A stretch of DNA of 64,000 nt, from assembly GCA_017883205.1 (NCBI GenBank), contig JADGNZ010000035.1, positions 444 to 64,443 of the forward strand, written 5' to 3'. The DNA comes from Thermoanaerobaculia bacterium (GTDB lineage: Bacteria > Acidobacteriota > Thermoanaerobaculia > Gp7-AA8). The stretch's first letter is position 1, and every line of letters begins with the position of its first letter. The notes under the pieces are model-generated. The model searched no databases, was not told the origin of the DNA, and worked only from the letters and a program-made list of their open reading frames with translations. Below, piece after piece: positions 1 to 31,685 of the stretch. Both the position numbers and the translations under genes were made by a program.

Positions 1-731
1 TTCGCCTGGATGCGCGACTTGAGGTAGAGATTGCCCATCGACGGCTTGATCTTCAACGACTGATCGATCCATTTCATCGCCAGCGCGTTGTTGCCCGAGT
101 CGAACGCGAAGGATGCCGCGCGAGCAGGAGTCGCAGCATCCGTCGGAGCGGCAGCGGCAACGGACGCAGTCGCCGCAGCCATCACGTTTGCGGTGGTGTT
201 CGTGCCGACTTTGAAGAGCACCATCGTGTCGGCCCAGCGTAGCGCGACCACGGCGTCGTCGGTCGTCACGTCAGGAAACGTGATTGTGAACACCTCCGCA
301 TGCGGTCCCTTTTCCGCCTTCGCGGTGACGCGCAGCGCGTCCTGCGCCTGTTCGTAGTTGAACGAGCCCCACTGCTTTGCGGTCTTGTTGAAGATCAGCG
401 TCCACGAATCCTTCCCCGGGATCGTGTGTAACGAGTAGGCACCCTTCGGCAGCGGCTTGCCGTCGATCGTCACGTCTTCGCTGAACGTGATCTGCGTCGC
501 TTCGTTCGCGCCGGTGCGCCAGACCTTGTCGTACGGGACTAGCCCGCCGAAGATCGTGCGGCCCTTGGCGACGGGACGGCTGTAGTCGATCGTGATGTCG
601 GTGAGCCCGACTGTTTGCGTGATGACCTGATGCTGCGACACGCGCGGAATCTTGAGTGGCGCGGCCTGCTGCGCGACCAACGGAAGCGTGGCCGAGGTGA
701 GAAAAAGACAAATCGCAAGGTACTTGCGCAT
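1..731 (-). CDS. DUF2911 domain-containing secreted protein (3' end beyond window start)
   Basis: Minus-strand frame translated by hand: MRKYLAICLFLTSATLPLVAQQ... signal peptide, then GRTIFGGLVPYDKVWRTGANEATQITF, typical of DUF2911. ATG at 729-731; the frame stays open to position 1. Confidence 0.7.
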   Translation of the reverse strand, partial: MRKYLAICLFLTSATLPLVAQQAAPLKIPRVSQHQVITQTVGLTDITIDYSRPVAKGRTIFGGLVPYDKVWRTGANEATQITFSEDVTIDGKPLPKGAYSLHTIPGKDSWTLIFNKTAKQWGSFNYEQAQDALRVTAKAEKGPHAEVFTITFPDVTTDDAVVALRWADTMVLFKVGTNTTANVMAAATASVAAAAPTDAATPARAASFAFDSGNNALAMKWIDQSLKIKPSMGNLYLKSRIQA

Positions 732-804
732 TGAAAAGCTCCTTTCGGTTTCGTAACCGGGGCCGGATCGTAGCAAAACGGCAGGGAGGGTCGGTAAACT
801 GATG

Positions 805-26780: not shown

Positions 26781-28247
26781 ATGAGCTTCACGCGAGACGC
26801 TTTCATCAGCTACGCCCACATCGACAACGAACCTCTCCCTGATGAGAAGGAAGGGTGGGTGACTGTCTTCGACAAGGCGCTTCGACAGGTGCTCAGCCGT
26901 TACACGGGCAAGGATGCGAACATCTGGCGGGACGAGAAGCTGCAGGGGAATGACGTCTTCTCCGATGAGATCCTCAGCCAGTTCCCCGAGACGGCCGTGC
27001 TCGTGTCCGTCCTGTCGCCGCGCTATCTGAAATCGGAATGGTGCAGCAAGGAGATGACTCAGTTTTACGAGATCGCGGAGAAATCGGGCGGCATCATCAT
27101 CGGCAACAAGTGCCGCATCTTCAAAATCATCAAGACACCGTTCGGAAGAGACGAGTCCCTGCCGCCAGAAGTGGCGGGAGTGCTTGGACGCATTCTCGGC
27201 TACGAGTTCTATCACCTCGACGCCGACAACACGCCGCAAGAGCTCGACCCCGCTTATGGCGATTCGGCACGCCAGGATTTCCTGAAGTCCGTGACACGGG
27301 TGGCCTGGCACATCAAGGAGTTGCTCGATGTGATGTCGAGTGCGCCCGCGGCTGGAAAGGCCAGGCCATCGATCTACCTCGCAGAGTGCACGCGTGACCA
27401 GCGCGACGCGCGCTCAACTCTCGAGGGGGAGCTGAAGCGCCTCGGATACGACATCCTTCCCGATTCCCAGCTCCCCACCGACTCAGTGGAGTACGTCGCT
27501 GAGGTCGAAAAGCAGCTCCAGCAGTGCGATCTGTCGATCCATCTCGTCGGCAGCAGCTACGGTGCCGTGCCTGACGGAACCGATCAGTCGGTGGTCGCAC
27601 TGCAGAACGCATCGGCCGTCGGCGTCAGTAGGAAGAGCGGTCTTGCCCGCGTCATCTCCGTCCCGGCGGATTTGCAGACCACCGATCCGCGCCAACAGGC
27701 TTTCATCACCGCGCTGCATGAGGATGCCGGCTTACAGTTCGGCGCGGACCTCATCACCGGCGGGATCGAGGATCTGAAGAGCGCCGTGCTGGCGGCACTT
27801 GCCCGGGTCGAGCGAGCTACCAGCATTCCCGTTGCCGGCGCAGATAAGACGCTGGTCTACGTGATCTGCGACCCTCGTGACGTTCAAGCCACCATACCGT
27901 TGGCAAAGAGTCTCGTCGCCCGCGGCATGAGAGTCGAGCTGACGGTTTTCGACGGCGACGCGGCGGCTGTGCGCGAAGCGAATGAACAGCTCATGACGAC
28001 TGCCGGCGCGATCGTTCTCTTCTGGGGCGCCGGCGACGACACATGGCGCGCCTACCAGCAGAGTGATATCCGCAAGAACCAGGGTGCACGCCGCGACAAC
28101 CCGCCGAAGACGATCACGTACGTCGCCGGGCCCGCGACGAGCAAGAAGCAGTTTCTTCTGCAAACCGAAGCCGGCGTCATCGACGCCTCGAGCGCTCCCG
28201 AGGAGCAGGCGATCGCGGCTCTTGCCAAGGCGCTGGGGCTTACGTGA
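26781..28247 (+). CDS. TIR-domain protein with two additional C-terminal Rossmann/flavodoxin-like modules
   Basis: N-terminal DAFISYAHIDNE...IWRDE...AVLVSVLSPRYLKSEWCSKEM matches the TIR betaA/alphaC motifs. Further modules start at SIYLAECTRD and TLVYVICDPRD. The stop overlaps the downstream start (GTGATG). Confidence 0.8.
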   Translation: MSFTRDAFISYAHIDNEPLPDEKEGWVTVFDKALRQVLSRYTGKDANIWRDEKLQGNDVFSDEILSQFPETAVLVSVLSPRYLKSEWCSKEMTQFYEIAEKSGGIIIGNKCRIFKIIKTPFGRDESLPPEVAGVLGRILGYEFYHLDADNTPQELDPAYGDSARQDFLKSVTRVAWHIKELLDVMSSAPAAGKARPSIYLAECTRDQRDARSTLEGELKRLGYDILPDSQLPTDSVEYVAEVEKQLQQCDLSIHLVGSSYGAVPDGTDQSVVALQNASAVGVSRKSGLARVISVPADLQTTDPRQQAFITALHEDAGLQFGADLITGGIEDLKSAVLAALARVERATSIPVAGADKTLVYVICDPRDVQATIPLAKSLVARGMRVELTVFDGDAAAVREANEQLMTTAGAIVLFWGAGDDTWRAYQQSDIRKNQGARRDNPPKTITYVAGPATSKKQFLLQTEAGVIDASSAPEEQAIAALAKALGLT

Positions 28248-30679
28248 TGTCGACGAATCCGTTCCCCGGCTTACGTCCATTCCTTGAAGAAGAAGAGCAT
28301 CTCTTTTTCGGGCGTGAATCGCAGGTCGACGCCATGGTCGACACGCTTGCCGCGTCGCATTTCCTGGCTGTGGTCGGGACATCCGGATCGGGAAAATCGT
28401 CGCTCGTAAACTGTGGTCTGCGCCCGGCCCTTCATCGGGGAATGATGGCGCAAGCCGGCACGTCGTGGCGTATCGCCCAGTTCCGGCCGGGAAACAATCC
28501 GATCTGCGCGATGGCGGAAGCGCTGGCCAAAGAGGGGGCTCTCTACGGCGGTGCCGTGGAAGGTCCCTTCACTCAAAGCGAGATGATCGAGTCGAGTCTT
28601 CGCATGAGCAAACTTGGGCTGCTGGATGTCTTCGAGCAAGCCCGTCTGCCCCAGGGAACGAATCTGCTCGTGGTGGCCGACCAGTTCGAAGAGCTCTTCC
28701 GATTTCAAGAGAAGAGCGCAATCGGAACCAACGCGCGGAACGATCTCGCCGACCAGGCCACGGCGTTCGTCAACCTCCTCCTGGAAGTGCGCGGACACAA
28801 AGACCTGCCCATCTACGTCACGCTCACGATGCGCTCTGACTTTCTCGGCGAGTGCGCGCAGTTCTACGGACTACCGGAGGCGATCAACGGGGGCCAGTAC
28901 CTCGTGCCGCGGATGACTCGTGACGAGCGCAGACGCGCCATCGCCGGTCCTGTCGGAGTCGGCGGCGCGGAGATCGATCCGGTCCTGCTCACGCGCCTGG
29001 TCAACGACGTCGGCGGGAATCCCGATCAGCTTTCGATCCTGCAGCATGCGCTCAACCGCACCTGGCGGCAGTGGGAACGCGAGGGCAGCAGCGGTCCGCT
29101 GACCCTGCAGCACTACGAGAAGATCGGCACGATGGCCGGCGCGCTCGATCAGCACGCGGAAAAAGCCTATGCGGAGCTCACCACGCCAAGGCAGCGCGAA
29201 ATCTGCGAGAAGCTCTTCAAAGCGATTACCGACAAGGCCAGCGATGCCCGCGGTGTGCGGCGGCCTACGAGCGTGGACACACTCTGCAAATTGACGGGTG
29301 CGACGATCGAGGAGCTCACCAGTGTCGTCGACGTCTTCCGTAAGCCCAGCCGCTCCTTCCTCATGCCGCCATTCGGCGAGGCCCTGAAGGCCGATACGGT
29401 GATCGACATCTCCCACGAGAGCCTGATGCGTGTTTGGGACCGCCTGCGGATCTGGACCGAGGAAGAGGCGCGATCGGCGGGAACCTACCGCCGTTTGAGC
29501 GAGACGGCCTCACTGGAGCTTCACAACGACGCGAGCCTCTGGACCGGCCCGGATCTGGCGGGAGCGCTGGCCTGGCTGAACGACGAAAAACCGGAAGCCT
29601 GCTGGGCCGAGCGGTACGCGCCGGGCTTCAACGAGGCGATGGCGTTCCTTCGGAAAAGCACGGACGCGCAGGCCGCGGAACAAAAGCGCCATCGCGATGA
29701 AGCGTTGGAGAAGGCTCGGACCCAGGCCCGCTATGCCCGGGCGATTGCATTGCTTTCCGTGGCGCTGGTTCTCGCCCTGGCTCTCGGGGGCCTGTTAATT
29801 TACCGAAACGCCGCCACCAATTACCGGAACGCCGCCACCGCGCACGAGAGGGAAAAGGAGAAGCTCAACCGGTCCGCAAGGTCACTGCGGCAACAGGTTA
29901 TTGCCTCAGAGCAACAGGTCGTCAGCTCACAGCAACAGGTCGTCAGTTCACAGGCAGTCGCCGTTCAGTCGTTTGCGGTTGACAAGCAGCGGCCCGAGGA
30001 CGCTCGGAGAATTCACCAGAGCTTCGAGGCGCTGACCCATATTTCGGCGATCACAGCAACCGCTTCTCCGGAGCATTACACGAAGATCCAGTATTTCAAG
30101 AAAGCGACGGACTCACAGAAACTCGCCATGGCGCTGGATGACCTCGGTTTCGCGGTAAGCGAGGAAACCGCACGTACTCCCCGCGAGACGAATTGCATCT
30201 GGTACGGATCCGCAGTGCCGGATAACGATGTCAAGCTTGTCGCGTATGCCGTCATGCGAGCCGGCATCGATCTTAAGGGTATTCAGCCGCAGAACGTCGA
30301 GATCGGCTTCGATCCGGAGGTAATCCAAGTCGGCCATAACCCTTACTTGGATGAACAACCTCCATTCACACCGGACATCCTCAACACAACGCCGCCAAAC
30401 CAACTCCGTCGCATCGAAGTAGGGGCCAAGTCGAACGTTACCGGCATAATTACCAAACTTGATCCGAAGGCGCAGGAGGGTTGGATCCAGGGGCCGAAGG
30501 GCCCGGTGTATTTCCAGTTCTCGGACGATCCGCCGCCGAAGCCATTTAACGTCGGCGATGCCGTGACATTCACTGTCTACTACGGCAAGCGAATGTACGC
30601 GGAGAGGGTCACGGCACGAACGGAACAGCCTCGGCCCGGATCGAAAGCGGCGAGCGAGCTCAAAGCTGGCGTCCAGTAG
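28244..30679 (+). CDS. STAND-class P-loop NTPase with a predicted transmembrane helix, coiled-coil/tandem-repeat segment and C-terminal cold-shock-like OB fold
   Basis: NPFPGLRPFLEEEEHLFFGRESQVD...LAVVGTSGSGKSSLVNCGLRPAL (Walker A), LLVVADQFEELF (Walker B). Transmembrane-like LLSVALVLALALGGLLIY around aa 512-530. C-terminal TGIITKL...VYFQFSD...NVGDAVTFTV is CspA-like. Confidence 0.8.
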   Translation: MMSTNPFPGLRPFLEEEEHLFFGRESQVDAMVDTLAASHFLAVVGTSGSGKSSLVNCGLRPALHRGMMAQAGTSWRIAQFRPGNNPICAMAEALAKEGALYGGAVEGPFTQSEMIESSLRMSKLGLLDVFEQARLPQGTNLLVVADQFEELFRFQEKSAIGTNARNDLADQATAFVNLLLEVRGHKDLPIYVTLTMRSDFLGECAQFYGLPEAINGGQYLVPRMTRDERRRAIAGPVGVGGAEIDPVLLTRLVNDVGGNPDQLSILQHALNRTWRQWEREGSSGPLTLQHYEKIGTMAGALDQHAEKAYAELTTPRQREICEKLFKAITDKASDARGVRRPTSVDTLCKLTGATIEELTSVVDVFRKPSRSFLMPPFGEALKADTVIDISHESLMRVWDRLRIWTEEEARSAGTYRRLSETASLELHNDASLWTGPDLAGALAWLNDEKPEACWAERYAPGFNEAMAFLRKSTDAQAAEQKRHRDEALEKARTQARYARAIALLSVALVLALALGGLLIYRNAATNYRNAATAHEREKEKLNRSARSLRQQVIASEQQVVSSQQQVVSSQAVAVQSFAVDKQRPEDARRIHQSFEALTHISAITATASPEHYTKIQYFKKATDSQKLAMALDDLGFAVSEETARTPRETNCIWYGSAVPDNDVKLVAYAVMRAGIDLKGIQPQNVEIGFDPEVIQVGHNPYLDEQPPFTPDILNTTPPNQLRRIEVGAKSNVTGIITKLDPKAQEGWIQGPKGPVYFQFSDDPPPKPFNVGDAVTFTVYYGKRMYAERVTARTEQPRPGSKAASELKAGVQ

Positions 30680-30682
30680 TTA

Positions 30683-30808
30683 CCGGCCGGCGCGTTGGCG
30701 ATTCGCTCGATCGGCGCCGGCTTCCGGTCTTCGCTCACTTTCACGCAGACCACCTGCGCCTCGGTGACCAGGACTTTGTTCTGGTGAAGAGTGTCACGCG
30801 CAGACGCG
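30683..30808 (-). pseudogene. 3' fragment of a diverged paralog of the adjacent acyl-CoA thioesterase gene
   Basis: The minus strand encodes ...RDTLHQNKVLVTEAQVVCVKVSEDRKPAPIERIANAPAGN. The intact gene at 31278..31685 ends ...GTDPQKKVLVTEAQVVYVNVGEDRKPTPIVRIANALSR. About 85% nucleotide identity over about 100 bp. Upstream, the reading frame runs into the repeat array. Confidence 0.55.
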
Positions 30809-30835: not shown

Positions 30836-31094
30836 CACCCTGAGTCTCTTGCGAAAGACTCCCGAGTCTTTTGCGAAAGACCCCCGAGTCTTTTGCGAAA
30901 GACCCCCGAGTCTTTAACGAAAGACCCCCGAGTCTTTTGCGAAAGACCCCCGAGTCTTTAACGAAAGACCCCCGAGTCTTTTGCGAAAGACCCCGAGTCT
31001 TTAACGAAAGACCCCCGAGTCTTTTGCGAAAGACCCGGGTGTCATTATCGAATGACCCGGGAGTCATTGTCGAATGACTCGGGAGTCATTCGCG
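30836..31094. repeat. Array of 12 contiguous palindromic 22-bp units: 9 of type TCTTTTGCGAAAGACCCCCGAG/TCTTTAACGAAAGACCCCCGAG, then 3 of type (A/G)TCGAATGACCCGGGAGTCATT
   Basis: Each unit is an inverted repeat (AAAGACTC/GAGTCTTT or AATGACTC/GAGTCATT) around a C/G core. The two main variants alternate. No unique spacers. Confidence 0.9.
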
Positions 31095-31164
31095 AAAGGG
31101 CACGGCAGAGGAGCTAACTGCATGGGGGTTCAGTAATTTAGGTGCTTCATCTGACAGATCGCAA

Positions 31165-31255
31165 GGGGGCAGGTCGAAACCGAAACCGACGACAGCTTGA
31201 GTAGAGCGGAATGCTCGCAGCGAAGTGTCGTCGGTTTCGGTTTCGACCTGACCCC
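31165..31255. repeat. Perfect 25-bp-stem hairpin CAGGTCGAAACCGAAACCGACGACA...TGTCGTCGGTTTCGGTTTCGACCTG
   Basis: Perfect inverted repeat with a GAAACC subrepeat, immediately downstream of the minus-strand thioesterase gene. Confidence 0.85.
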
Positions 31256-31277: not shown

Positions 31278-31685
31278 TCAACGGCTCAGCGCGTTGGCGA
31301 TGCGCACGATCGGAGTCGGCTTCCGATCTTCGCCCACGTTCACGTAGACCACCTGCGCCTCGGTGACGAGGACTTTCTTCTGTGGGTCGGTACCGCGGAT
31401 CGCCTCACAAACGACTTTGACCGTGATCGAGGTCCTGCCGATGCGGAGGGTCTCCGTCCAAAAGCTGATGAGGTCACCGACGAAGACGGGCTGGTGAAAG
31501 ACGATCTTGTCCATCGACACGGTCAGCATCAGCCGGGAGCCCTGGCGGCGCGCTTCGATCGCGCCGGCCTGGTCGATGTAGCTGAGGATCACGCCGCCGA
31601 AGATCGTGCCTTGCGCGTTCGTGTCGCGCGGCATCATCAAGACCCGGATGGCGGGCTCTGCCCAACGTTCGGCGATTTCAGTCAT
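31278..31685 (-). CDS. Acyl-CoA thioesterase (hotdog fold, YciA-like)
   Basis: VLMMPRDTNAQGTIFGGVILSYIDQAG, typical of YciA-type thioesterases; 135 aa. Confidence 0.85.
   Translation of the reverse strand: MTEIAERWAEPAIRVLMMPRDTNAQGTIFGGVILSYIDQAGAIEARRQGSRLMLTVSMDKIVFHQPVFVGDLISFWTETLRIGRTSITVKVVCEAIRGTDPQKKVLVTEAQVVYVNVGEDRKPTPIVRIANALSR

Follow-up and report, generated by a model that had tools for sequence, protein, structure and literature searches.

Two translationally coupled genes lie on the forward strand of the stretch of DNA that was analysed (64,000 nucleotides, the window), and their features are collected in Table 1. At the junction (...CTT ACG TGA TG), the start of gene 2 overlaps the stop of gene 1, as a preliminary description of the locus had reported: the TGA stop occupies 28245-28247 and is overlapped by two possible start codons, GTG at 28244 and ATG at 28247. 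Public gene calls chose the ATG (P0001, 810 aa, an exact match to the gene 2 product), while the geometry of the GTG start agrees with the MISTN/MTSTN N-termini of homologues and with the ATGA-type overlap of most related loci. The motifs quoted in that description were all located, DAFISYAHID, IWRDE and SPRYLKSEWCSKEM at residues 6-15, 48-52 and 79-92 of gene 1, and GLRPF, FFGRE and GTSGSGKSS at residues 9-13, 21-25 and 45-53 of gene 2.

Table 1. Features of the gene pair, with positions in the window and the basis of each assignment
Feature	Position	Strand	Basis
Gene 1, three-domain TIR protein, predicted effector, 488 aa	26781..28247	+	ORF, homologues, AlphaFold model
Domain 1, TIR, residues 1-186	26781..27338	+	Pfam TIR_2, TIR; Foldseek
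TIR catalytic Glu, E91	27051-27053	+	Alignment to RUN1, invariance
Domain 2, DUF4062-like (TIR-like), residues 197-348	27369..27824	+	Pfam DUF4062, hhalign
Gln 275, at the catalytic-Glu position of domain 2	27603-27605	+	hhalign to Eva01
Domain 3, Rossmann/flavodoxin-like, residues 358-484	27852..28232	+	AlphaFold model, beta-alpha repeat fold
Gene 2, membrane-anchored nSTAND1 NTPase, predicted switch and sensor, 811 aa counted from the GTG	28244..30679	+	ORF, AlphaFold model
nSTAND1 NTPase module with helical and winged-helix parts, residues 6-422	28259..29509	+	Pfam PF20703
Walker A, GTSGSGKSS	28376-28402	+	Motif
Walker B, LLVVADQFEE	28664-28693	+	Motif
Predicted single transmembrane helix, AIALLSVALVLALALGGLLIY, residues 500-520	29741..29803	+	Hydropathy, family conservation
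Alpha/beta domain after the coiled coil, residues ~585-699	29996..30340	+	AlphaFold model, conserved columns
C-terminal cold-shock-like OB barrel, residues ~731-790	30434..30613	+	Model, profile vs PDB, hhalign

Homologues of gene 1 (~490-520 aa, 39-94% identity) are spread across phyla, and its AlphaFold model (pLDDT 81) contains three alpha/beta domains. The TIR assignment of the first was borne out by profile search, both with Pfam TIR_2 (E 8.5e-11, 42.8 bits, cutoff 28) and with the Pfam TIR model (E 3.6e-6), and Foldseek matched it to the TIR domains of RPP1, SNC1, RUN1, SARM1, TLR2 and MAL. The catalytic position is intact: WCxKE of the family profile aligns with WCLDEL of RUN1, in the same column as the E-to-A change of RUN1 entry 7s2z, and E91 is invariant in 20 diverse homologues. 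Domain 2 reaches the Pfam DUF4062 cutoff (24.7) when isolated (25.7 bits), against 23.6 bits for the full protein. When it was aligned by hhalign with Eva01 of pMW2, GSSYG...S270 paired with GSSYG...S82, and Q275 therefore stands opposite E87, the putative catalytic Glu of Eva01 (10.64898/2026.06.25.731849). Both Q275 and N276 are invariant among homologues. Domain 3 had no match in a Pfam search and showed a weak colinear match to domain 2 (hhalign E 0.003, probability 11%); its conserved residues are C363, D367, G392, D419 and W422.

The product of gene 2 (AlphaFold model, pLDDT 78) consists, in this order, of the nSTAND1 NTPase, one predicted transmembrane helix, a coiled coil, the alpha/beta domain and the OB barrel. 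Its assignment as a P-loop STAND protein was upheld by Pfam PF20703 (nSTAND1) at E 1.6e-90 and 305 bits (cutoff 27.1). The residues of Walker A, Walker B and the TMRSDF motif do not vary in 30 homologues, the module as a whole retains 53-89% identity over 73 loci, and Foldseek matched it to Cdc6/Orc and Apaf-1.

At the sequence level the transmembrane helix is confirmed, with 21 uncharged residues and a hydropathy of 2.8 over 19 residues. An uncharged hydrophobic segment (median 21 aa) follows the NTPase in 71/71 partner proteins, and Lys and Arg are on average more numerous on its N-terminal flank (5.5 vs 3.1), with N exceeding C in 62 of the 71. In the alpha/beta domain beyond it, the model shows strands and helices at 586-696 (pLDDT ~80-90), and Y, K, LGF, N and W columns are invariant. 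A Pfam search gave nothing above cutoff for this domain, while weak matches to the CopA HMA (whole-sequence E 1.9e-5, per-domain 0.018), ACT and LytR_C tentatively suggest a ferredoxin-like fold. The barrel has five strands in the model (726-790). Its profile retrieved CspA (E 0.0016) and many other cold-shock proteins from the PDB, together with a weak CusF match, and hhalign aligned it with E. coli CspA at a probability of 92.7%. Of the "nucleic-acid-binding-type OB fold" proposed earlier, the cold-shock-like barrel is thus retained, whereas nucleic-acid binding is a fold-class assumption rather than a supported function, because the helix most likely places the barrel outside the cytoplasm.

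The C-termini of the partner nSTAND1 proteins vary (WD40, FGE-sulfatase, peptidoglycan-binding, SPOR), and the shorter paralogous variants P0029-P0049 (708-731 aa) do without the OB barrel. Among the domains that follow the same helix in homologues are FGE-sulfatase and two that bind peptidoglycan, PG_binding_1 and SPOR, which must therefore lie outside the cytoplasm. From hydropathy, the positive-inside rule and this domain logic, the variable sensor end of gene 2, including the OB barrel, probably faces outside the cytoplasm. Cold-shock-like barrels are typically cytoplasmic, which is a point against such a placement. A rather unlikely alternative retains the same TIR/STAND defence logic with cytoplasmic sensing, the helix being a tether or re-entrant and the barrel binding phage single-stranded nucleic acid. 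The nearest relatives of the barrel, the cold-shock proteins, bind ssDNA/RNA, and their RNP-motif aromatics are partly retained in it (W, Y and an invariant F), but the equivalents of CspA F18 and H33 are replaced (E, Q), periplasmic OB barrels such as the weakly matching CusF exist too, and the barrel is dispensable in the close paralogues. Similarly, WD40 and TPR are common cytoplasmic sensors, and the characterised bacterial STAND sensors (Avs) work in the cytoplasm (PMC13581612); however, a cytoplasmic N-terminal NTPase followed by one uncharged 21-residue helix is expected to leave the C-terminus outside, and both the charge bias, which favours N-in, and the peptidoglycan-binding domains after the helix argue for the same orientation. 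Cytoplasmic sensing was the view implicit in the preliminary description.

The two genes are also kept together in other genomes. In 77 of 80 loci the nSTAND1 gene comes immediately after the TIR gene, mostly with a 4-nt overlap, and the lineages represented include Acidobacteriota, Betaproteobacteria, Binatia, Methylomirabilota, Nitrospirales and Gemmatimonadota. The genome collection contains at least 538 matching stretches, and the family comprises at least 814 clusters at 50% identity. Across 73 loci, pairwise identity in the TIR module goes with pairwise identity in the NTPase module (r 0.876, Mantel p 0.001), and P0502 is called as a single polypeptide with the TIR module at 1-461 and nSTAND1 at 504-921. 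No third gene family was found to recur beside the pair across lineages. Bacteria that form flocs, biofilms or soil aggregates predominate among the hosts (Zoogloea, Accumulibacter, Thauera, Nitrosomonas, Entotheonella, Acidobacteriota). The literature, as far as its texts were available, yielded no description of the TIR/nSTAND1 pair, and no experiment on a member of the family was found in it.

At the present locus, the flanks are housekeeping genes, as had been described (rarA upstream, a 4HBT thioesterase and ppiD downstream), and the downstream gene fragment and repeat array both exist; no other defence genes lie near the pair within the window. In six relatives, found via rarA at 82-92% identity, the pair is not universal: rarA directly adjoins the thioesterase in five, with synteny otherwise identical, and a different, toxin-like cassette occupies the junction in the sixth. 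Because of this distribution the pair is accessory. The L004 allele shares 56% identity in the TIR protein and 73% in the NTPase module, against 76-100% in the flanking genes. The excess of rare codons pointed out earlier is present, although modest: AGA, AGG, ATA and TTA together make up 11.5 of every 1000 codons of the pair, against 3.8 for seven genes nearby (Fisher p 0.005); GC3 is 0.75 vs 0.81 for the same genes, and overall GC does not deviate from the flanks. That the overlap is incidental, between housekeeping genes or neighbours with no connection to each other, is highly improbable. Core genes on both sides and a flank-like GC content would be in agreement with this, but it is contradicted by the adjacency across phyla, the co-variation of the modules, the fused form and the five relatives without the pair.

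The layout is that of a classical STAND effector, switch and sensor, divided over two translationally coupled genes. The nSTAND1 family was defined in conflict systems (PMC8195603), and the hallmarks of such systems counted here are variable C-termini on a conserved core, patchy presence, the divergence of the L004 allele and poorer codon usage. We therefore regard the pair as a widespread accessory module and a candidate for immunity or cell death, and give a probability of about 55% to its being a conflict system with effector, NTPase and sensor split between two genes, in which a cue sensed outside the cytoplasm switches on a TIR NADase. The nSTAND1 protein would reside in the inner membrane, with its NTPase module in the cytoplasm and its lineage-variable C-terminal domains outside. 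Once a cue outside the cytoplasm is bound (for example part of a phage or competitor, or damage to the envelope), the NTPase would be freed to bind NTP and oligomerise, and the oligomer would collect the partner TIR protein. TIR NADases require oligomerisation (reviewed in 10.64898/2026.05.01.722283); here, clustered TIR domains would form active sites and cleave NAD+, by way of depletion or of a signal, leading to cell arrest or death. For the third domain and the DUF4062-like one, whose catalytic position holds Gln, the most likely role is that of a scaffold without catalytic activity, used for nucleotide binding or docking.

For arms-race genes, both modules show unusually strong conservation (identity across phyla at least 53% for the NTPase module and 39% for TIR), and this, like the conserved context of the pair in Acidobacteriaceae (17 loci), would fit a physiological signalling role as well. 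The pair might then have no role in immunity and serve transmembrane signalling or envelope surveillance in aggregate-forming bacteria, which we consider unlikely: an outside cue would turn the NTPase on, TIR would make a nucleotide signal (a cADPR-type product), and the Gln-bearing DUF4062-like domain or another component would read it, with physiology or developmental cell death as the output. The invariant Gln-Asn at the pseudo-active site suggests that ligand binding is kept, but no conserved third gene able to read a signal accompanies the pair, and those TIR and DUF4062 proteins that have so far been characterised in bacteria serve as defence effectors. Likewise, the aggregate-forming hosts agree with the link between such systems and a multicellular habit (PMC7159879, PMC8195603), and defence genes do not adjoin the pair in the window; however, the sensor domains are hypervariable, and close relatives differ in its presence at a junction that elsewhere houses a toxin-like cassette.

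No named system could be assigned, as previously stated: PADLOC (5027-model library) gave no significant match, and its Avs and NACHT models did not match the pair. One close resemblance is to the nSTAND1-centred conflict systems (Kaur, Iyer, Burroughs, Aravind, eLife 2021, PMC8195603) and the DGR-diversified nSTAND1/NACHT sensors (PMC10907252). The pair shares with the former the NTPase family, variable C-terminal sensors (FGE-sulfatase, WD40, TPR), TIR among the associated effectors and enrichment in aggregate-forming bacteria, and with the DGR targets the periplasmic placement proposed for some sensor domains. In the available passages on those nSTAND1-centred systems the effector is joined to the NTPase by fusion or by EADs/death-like adaptor domains, whereas here it is a three-domain TIR/DUF4062-like protein encoded by its own, translationally coupled gene and lacking an adaptor domain, and every partner examined carries a transmembrane helix behind the NTPase.

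Avs/AVAST and bNACHT proteins have in common with the pair the effector/STAND NTPase/sensor logic, activation driven by oligomerisation (proposed here) and a patchy accessory distribution. They are, however, single cytoplasmic polypeptides with a fused N-terminal effector that sense phage proteins inside the cell, and their NTPase clades differ; in the pair the effector is a protein of its own and the sensor is predicted to lie outside the cytoplasm. The DUF4062 (NIR) TIR-like NADase defence proteins Swarozyc and Evangelion (preprints of 2026, 10.64898/2026.05.01.722283, 10.64898/2026.06.25.731849) are related through the TIR-like fold of domain 2 and through the GSSYG...S motif shared with Eva01, and the same pairing of modules is seen in eukaryotic DUF4062-STAND NTPase fusions with WD40 repeats (TEP1, NWD1/2, NPHP3). 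Swarozyc and Evangelion are each encoded by one gene, which includes an auxiliary sensing region, and they have a catalytic Glu (E97 in KpSwz, E87 in Eva01), in contrast to the invariant Gln found here, in a domain lying between a canonical TIR and a third domain and partnered by a separate STAND NTPase.

Thoeris (ThsB TIR sensor and ThsA effector) also places a TIR gene beside a partner gene in a small operon. The partner here is a STAND NTPase instead of a ThsA-type SIR2/SLOG or Macro effector, the ThsB profile matched gene 1 weakly (E 5.7e-4, far below significance for a library of that size), and the NCBIfam type III model ThcB4 scored 14 bits against a cutoff of 220. The resemblance to plant TNL and animal TLR/SARM1-type receptors is one of logic only. 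TNLs share the STAND switch and a TIR catalytic Glu aligned with RUN1 E100 but are cytoplasmic single chains with NB-ARC, while TLRs, in which the TIR is a scaffold and an NTPase is lacking, share the outside sensor (predicted here), the one transmembrane helix and the TIR output inside.

The two genes were found on the plus strand exactly at the coordinates claimed in the preliminary description (Table), and every sequence motif quoted there was recovered in the encoded proteins. The proposed GTGATG start/stop overlap is present at their junction, where the TGA stop of gene 1 (28245–28247) overlaps two gene 2 starts, GTG at 28244 and ATG at 28247. The TIR and P-loop NTPase assignments were borne out by Pfam with scores far over the curated cutoffs, as TIR_2 (E 8.5e-11) and nSTAND1 (E 1.6e-90), respectively. 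The finding is real, and its first interpretation as a coupled TIR and membrane STAND pair, a candidate defence system, stands with the refinements presented here.

Table. Location of the gene pair, the modelled parts of its products, and the neighboring sequence elements
Feature	Position	Strand	Basis or remark
Gene 1 (TIR protein)	26781–28247	+	ORF, 488 aa
Gene 1, domain 1	residues 1–186		AlphaFold model
Gene 1, domain 2	residues 197–348		AlphaFold model
Gene 1, domain 3	residues 358–484		AlphaFold model
Gene 2 (nSTAND1 NTPase)	28244–30679	+	ORF, 811 aa
Gene 2, AAA+/STAND core, including helical and winged-helix regions	residues to ~455		model; Foldseek Cdc6/Orc, Apaf-1
Gene 2, long helix with 21-residue uncharged segment, then coiled coil	residues 500–520 (segment)		model
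Gene 2, alpha/beta domain	residues ~585–699		model
Gene 2, five-stranded barrel	residues ~726–790		model
Copy of thioesterase gene 3' end	30683–30783		~100 nt, right after the gene 2 stop
22-nt tandem ("iteron") array	30838–31098		~12 copies
Inverted repeat	~31163–31255		~25-nt arms, loop ~40 nt; seen by eye
Intact thioesterase gene	31278–31685	−	

The product of gene 1 was modelled by AlphaFold (20 homologues, pLDDT 81) as three alpha/beta domains. The first is a canonical TIR domain, which scored 42.8 bits against TIR_2 (cutoff 28) and 27.3 bits against TIR (cutoff 21.3), and for which Foldseek returned the TIR domains of RPP1, SNC1, RUN1, SARM1, TLR2, and MAL. In the family profile, WCxKE aligned with WCLDEL of RUN1, and the column of the catalytic Glu, located through the structure entry of an E-to-A mutant (7s2z), corresponds to E91. 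By alignment, this residue occupies the catalytic position in the alpha-C helix (RUN1 E100, SARM1 E642), and it is invariant among the 20 homologues, which are only ~48% identical. Judged by fold and catalytic Glu, the domain appears to fall in the NADase-competent subset of TIRs, with NAD+ cleavage as its putative activity.

The second domain matched Pfam DUF4062 with 23.6 bits within the full protein and 25.7 bits as an isolated domain (cutoff 24.7), and several members of the TIR family have precomputed PF13271 matches. In 2026 preprints (10.64898/2026.05.01.722283 and 10.64898/2026.06.25.731849), DUF4062 was shown to act as a TIR-like NADase domain in Swarozyc and Evangelion, which are single-gene defence systems, and in human TEP1. 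When the Eva01 sequence from plasmid pMW2 was aligned to domain 2 by hhalign, a GSSYG...S motif was common to both, and in the ungapped extension of this match the putative catalytic E87-Y88 of Eva01 faced Q275-N276, both of which are invariant across the TIR family. Because of this invariant replacement, domain 2 is most likely a non-hydrolysing relative of DUF4062, which may retain nucleotide binding. Domain 3 had no Pfam match. By hhalign, domains 2 and 3 showed a weak colinear similarity, and no signal was seen between the TIR domain and either of them, so that a description as three TIR-like domains is based on Pfam and fold and holds for domains 1 and 2 only.

In gene 2, nSTAND1 (PF20703) matched residues 6–422 with 305 bits (cutoff 27.1), covering profile positions 1–368 of 379. 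The Walker A (GTSGSGKSS), the Walker B (hhhhDQFEE), and other core residues were invariant in 30 homologues. With the full-length AlphaFold model (pLDDT 78), Foldseek was dominated by AAA+/Cdc6/Apaf-1 matches and gave no informative match for the small C-terminal domains, which were examined by sequence profiles of sub-alignments. The alpha/beta domain resembled only HMA, ACT, and LytR_C, weakly, and did not match P0106, a homologue bearing a SPOR domain. The five-stranded barrel has a cold-shock domain fold: a PDB profile search matched CspA (E 0.0016) and hhalign against CspA gave 92.7%, although no Pfam CSD match was obtained. Hence the OB fold of the preliminary description was supported as a cold-shock-like barrel, while the aromatic set for nucleic-acid binding was kept only in part, since the equivalents of CspA F20, F31, and F34 are aromatic and F18 and H33 are replaced by E and Q. 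Shorter paralogues of gene 2 are devoid of the barrel.

The pair is one copy of a family with many. A search of 1.84 billion representatives with the TIR protein gave at least 814 clusters (50% identity level) at E ≤ 1e-30, and at least 538 matching stretches were confirmed when one genome per species was scanned. In 77 of the best 80 of these loci, an nSTAND1 gene directly follows the TIR gene, so that the pair forms a conserved neighbourhood; the remaining three loci are truncated at contig ends. Loci with the pair were found in Acidobacteriota, Zoogloea, Thauera, Accumulibacter, Nitrosomonas, Binatia, Methylomirabilota, Nitrospirales, Gemmatimonadota, Entotheonella, and others, with an ATGA-type overlap between both genes in most loci. 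Around the pair, a third gene family recurring across lineages was sought in the related loci, and lineage-specific synteny alone was seen. Both modules are strikingly conserved, with the lowest pairwise identity across 73 loci being 39% for the TIR and 53% for the NTPase module, and their pairwise identities are correlated (r 0.876, Mantel p 0.001). A single-chain form also exists in at least one database entry, P0502, in which the TIR module precedes nSTAND1, the classical order of effector and then NTPase.

Other arrangements of the TIR/DUF4062-like module were also noted. In P0502, it is fused ahead of nSTAND1; in P0395, it lies behind an nSTAND1-FGE-sulfatase protein, possibly as a run-on of tandem systems; and it is also placed behind LRR repeats (P0477), a ParA/MinD-like ATPase (P0471), and a SLOG domain (P0380).

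The predicted transmembrane helix of the NTPase was confirmed as a sequence feature, the 21-residue uncharged segment, and is a family-wide trait. In 71 of 71 partners, that is, the nSTAND1 proteins encoded next to a TIR gene, a hydrophobic stretch free of charged residues (median 21 residues) was found 56–134 residues past the NTPase module, and in 62 of them Lys and Arg were more abundant in the N-terminal than in the C-terminal flank (mean 5.5 vs 3.1). In addition, some homologues have PG_binding_1 or SPOR domains past a single helix, and the C-terminus of such proteins must be outside the cytoplasm. From the charge bias and these peptidoglycan-binding domains, we infer an N-in/C-out topology, with the variable sensor probably in the periplasm. 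The region after the NTPase is highly diverse: of 66 partners, 19 have WD40 propellers there, and others show TPR together with PG_binding_1, a SPOR or FGE-sulfatase domain, pentapeptide repeats, membrane regions of the multi-pass type, or nothing that matches a known domain. For gene 2, this topology predicts a barrel located outside the cytoplasm. A rival reading, in which the barrel would sense nucleic acids in the cytoplasm, has in its favor the fold and the three conserved aromatic positions, and has to be weighed against the two substituted ones and the predicted location.

The known STAND immune receptors of bacteria, Avs and bNACHT, each consist of one cytoplasmic protein and recognise phage proteins once these have entered the cell. 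In Avs, the effector is fused N-terminally to the cytoplasmic sensor in one protein, whereas here it is on a gene of its own, and no Avs model was among the PADLOC matches. A bNACHT or other NACHT NLR-like assignment was rejected as well, since NACHT (PF05729) was not matched and nSTAND1 was best. PADLOC gave no significant match to the pair, the best being ThsB (E 5.7e-4) and mad3/mad8 (E ~1e-3, over the P-loop only). Thoeris was discarded on this ThsB value and on the 14 bits of ThcB4 (cutoff 220), and no ThsA-type effector gene (SIR2/SLOG or Macro) was present in the window or the related loci. The TIR-like FxsC of the FXSXX-COOH system, the sole NCBIfam match at the N-terminus, stayed below its cutoff (NF040588, 45.7 bits, cutoff 130) and was rejected. 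Membership of Swarozyc or Evangelion was rejected too. These are single genes with a DUF4062 core and an auxiliary sensing region; in gene 1, the DUF4062-like domain lies between the TIR and the third domain, its conserved partner gene encodes an nSTAND1 protein, and the catalytic Glu of the S-Y-T-x-x-E-Y motif is absent, with Q275 in its place.

Kaur et al. 2021 (PMC8195603) defined nSTAND1 in the context of conflict systems built with adaptor domains. DGRs target nSTAND1 as well as NACHT proteins whose sensors are lectin-like, and for some of these sensors a periplasmic location is predicted (PMC10907252); a 2026 survey mapped the prokaryotic STAND clades. In the searchable literature texts, no description was found of a TIR/DUF4062-like/third-domain protein with a transmembrane nSTAND1. 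The domains and overall logic of the pair are already known; its split architecture, probable pseudo-NADase domain, and family-wide membrane anchor with a probable outside sensor are not described in those texts.

Based on its observed parts, catalytic residues, genetic coupling, and distribution, the pair is best supported as a split STAND conflict system. The variable C-terminus of gene 2 would sense an extracytoplasmic cue, the cytoplasmic NTPase would oligomerise in an NTP-dependent manner and cluster the partner TIR protein, and NAD+ would then be cleaved, leading to growth arrest or death; in this scheme, we infer the TIR–NTPase contact, the NADase activity, the trigger, and the cell outcome. 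A rival reading is that the same parts serve a non-immune signalling role.

A more far-reaching reading, to which we would give roughly one chance in three, is that the family is a bacterial transmembrane pattern-recognition receptor, with swappable outside sensors (WD40, FGE-sulfatase/lectin-like, peptidoglycan-binding, OB barrel) acting on the STAND NTPase and, through it, on a separately encoded TIR NADase. A periplasmic or cell-surface cue would be relayed across the membrane as outside-in immune signalling, following the logic of Toll-like receptors. If so, an attack by phages or competitors could be detected before cytoplasmic entry, by a receptor built from the TIR-like, STAND, and WD40 parts that came to be fused later in eukaryotic TEP1, NWD1, and NPHP3. 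If the pair works as proposed, NLR-like switches would be able to relay extracytoplasmic signals over the bacterial membrane, and the DUF4062-STAND-WD40 pairing of these three proteins in humans could be studied in a tractable bacterial system. With its strongly conserved cytoplasmic core and exchangeable sensors, the family is suited to finding triggers by domain swaps. Its domains are familiar, but it is large, uncharacterised, and mechanistically unusual: a module that occurs across hundreds of species, has no model in the PADLOC library, and unites a split layout, a TIR effector of three domains with a probable pseudo-NADase among them, and a sensor that is most likely extracytoplasmic.

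In three related Thermoanaerobaculia genomes, the pair occupies the same junction as in the window, with rarA on one side and the thioesterase-ppiD-mreB block on the other. The syntenic allele in one of these genomes (L004, 8001–11875) is only 56% (TIR) and 73% (NTPase module) identical to that of the window and its flanking genes are 76–100% identical, which indicates allelic replacement or fast divergence. Close relatives were found by a rarA protein search and six contig look-ups; among the matches listed from metagenome contigs searched with generic rarA peptide patterns, identity was at most 59%. The pair is not universal at this position, being absent from all six further relatives with conserved synteny (rarA 82–92% identical). 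In five of these, the thioesterase directly adjoins rarA, and the sixth (L164, 10333–11827; rarA 85% identical) has another three-gene cassette at the junction, encoding proteins of 248 and 67 aa without known family and a Zeta_toxin/AAA_33-like protein of 171 aa. In view of these empty sites and this cassette, the junction is variable and acts like a hotspot for integration; the pair is accessory, not housekeeping.

The codon usage of the pair is modestly poorer than that of the neighboring genes, with more rare codons (11.5 vs 3.8 per 1000, p 0.005), as had been remarked, and a lower GC3 (0.75 vs 0.81). Since its GC content does not deviate from that of the flanks, the compositional case for horizontal acquisition was rejected, and the argument for transfer, which was retained, rests on presence/absence and allele divergence. 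Scans for promoters and terminators gave nothing above shuffled controls. Among the related loci, 17 from Acidobacteriaceae (L043–L080) have a common upstream 5-kb context, in which a gene for a protein of ~1465 aa adjoins the pair; this shared context suggests vertical inheritance throughout Acidobacteriaceae, unlike the patchy occurrence in the Thermoanaerobaculia.

The gene fragment and iteron array reported after the pair were both located. The fragment is an 86%-identical copy of the thioesterase gene 3' end, encoding ...VLVTEAQVVCVKVSEDRKPAPIERIANAPAG and a stop, and it looks like the remnant of a later insertion or recombination, because the intact thioesterase occupies this spot in the relative L003. 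The array, with the unit CCCCGAGTCTTTTGCGAAAGAC, is positioned between this remnant and the intact gene, and each unit contains a small palindrome (GTCTTT/AAAGAC). Just downstream of the thioesterase stop, there is also an inverted repeat with the arms caggtcgaaaccgaaaccgacgaca and tgtcgtcggtttcggtttcgacctg.
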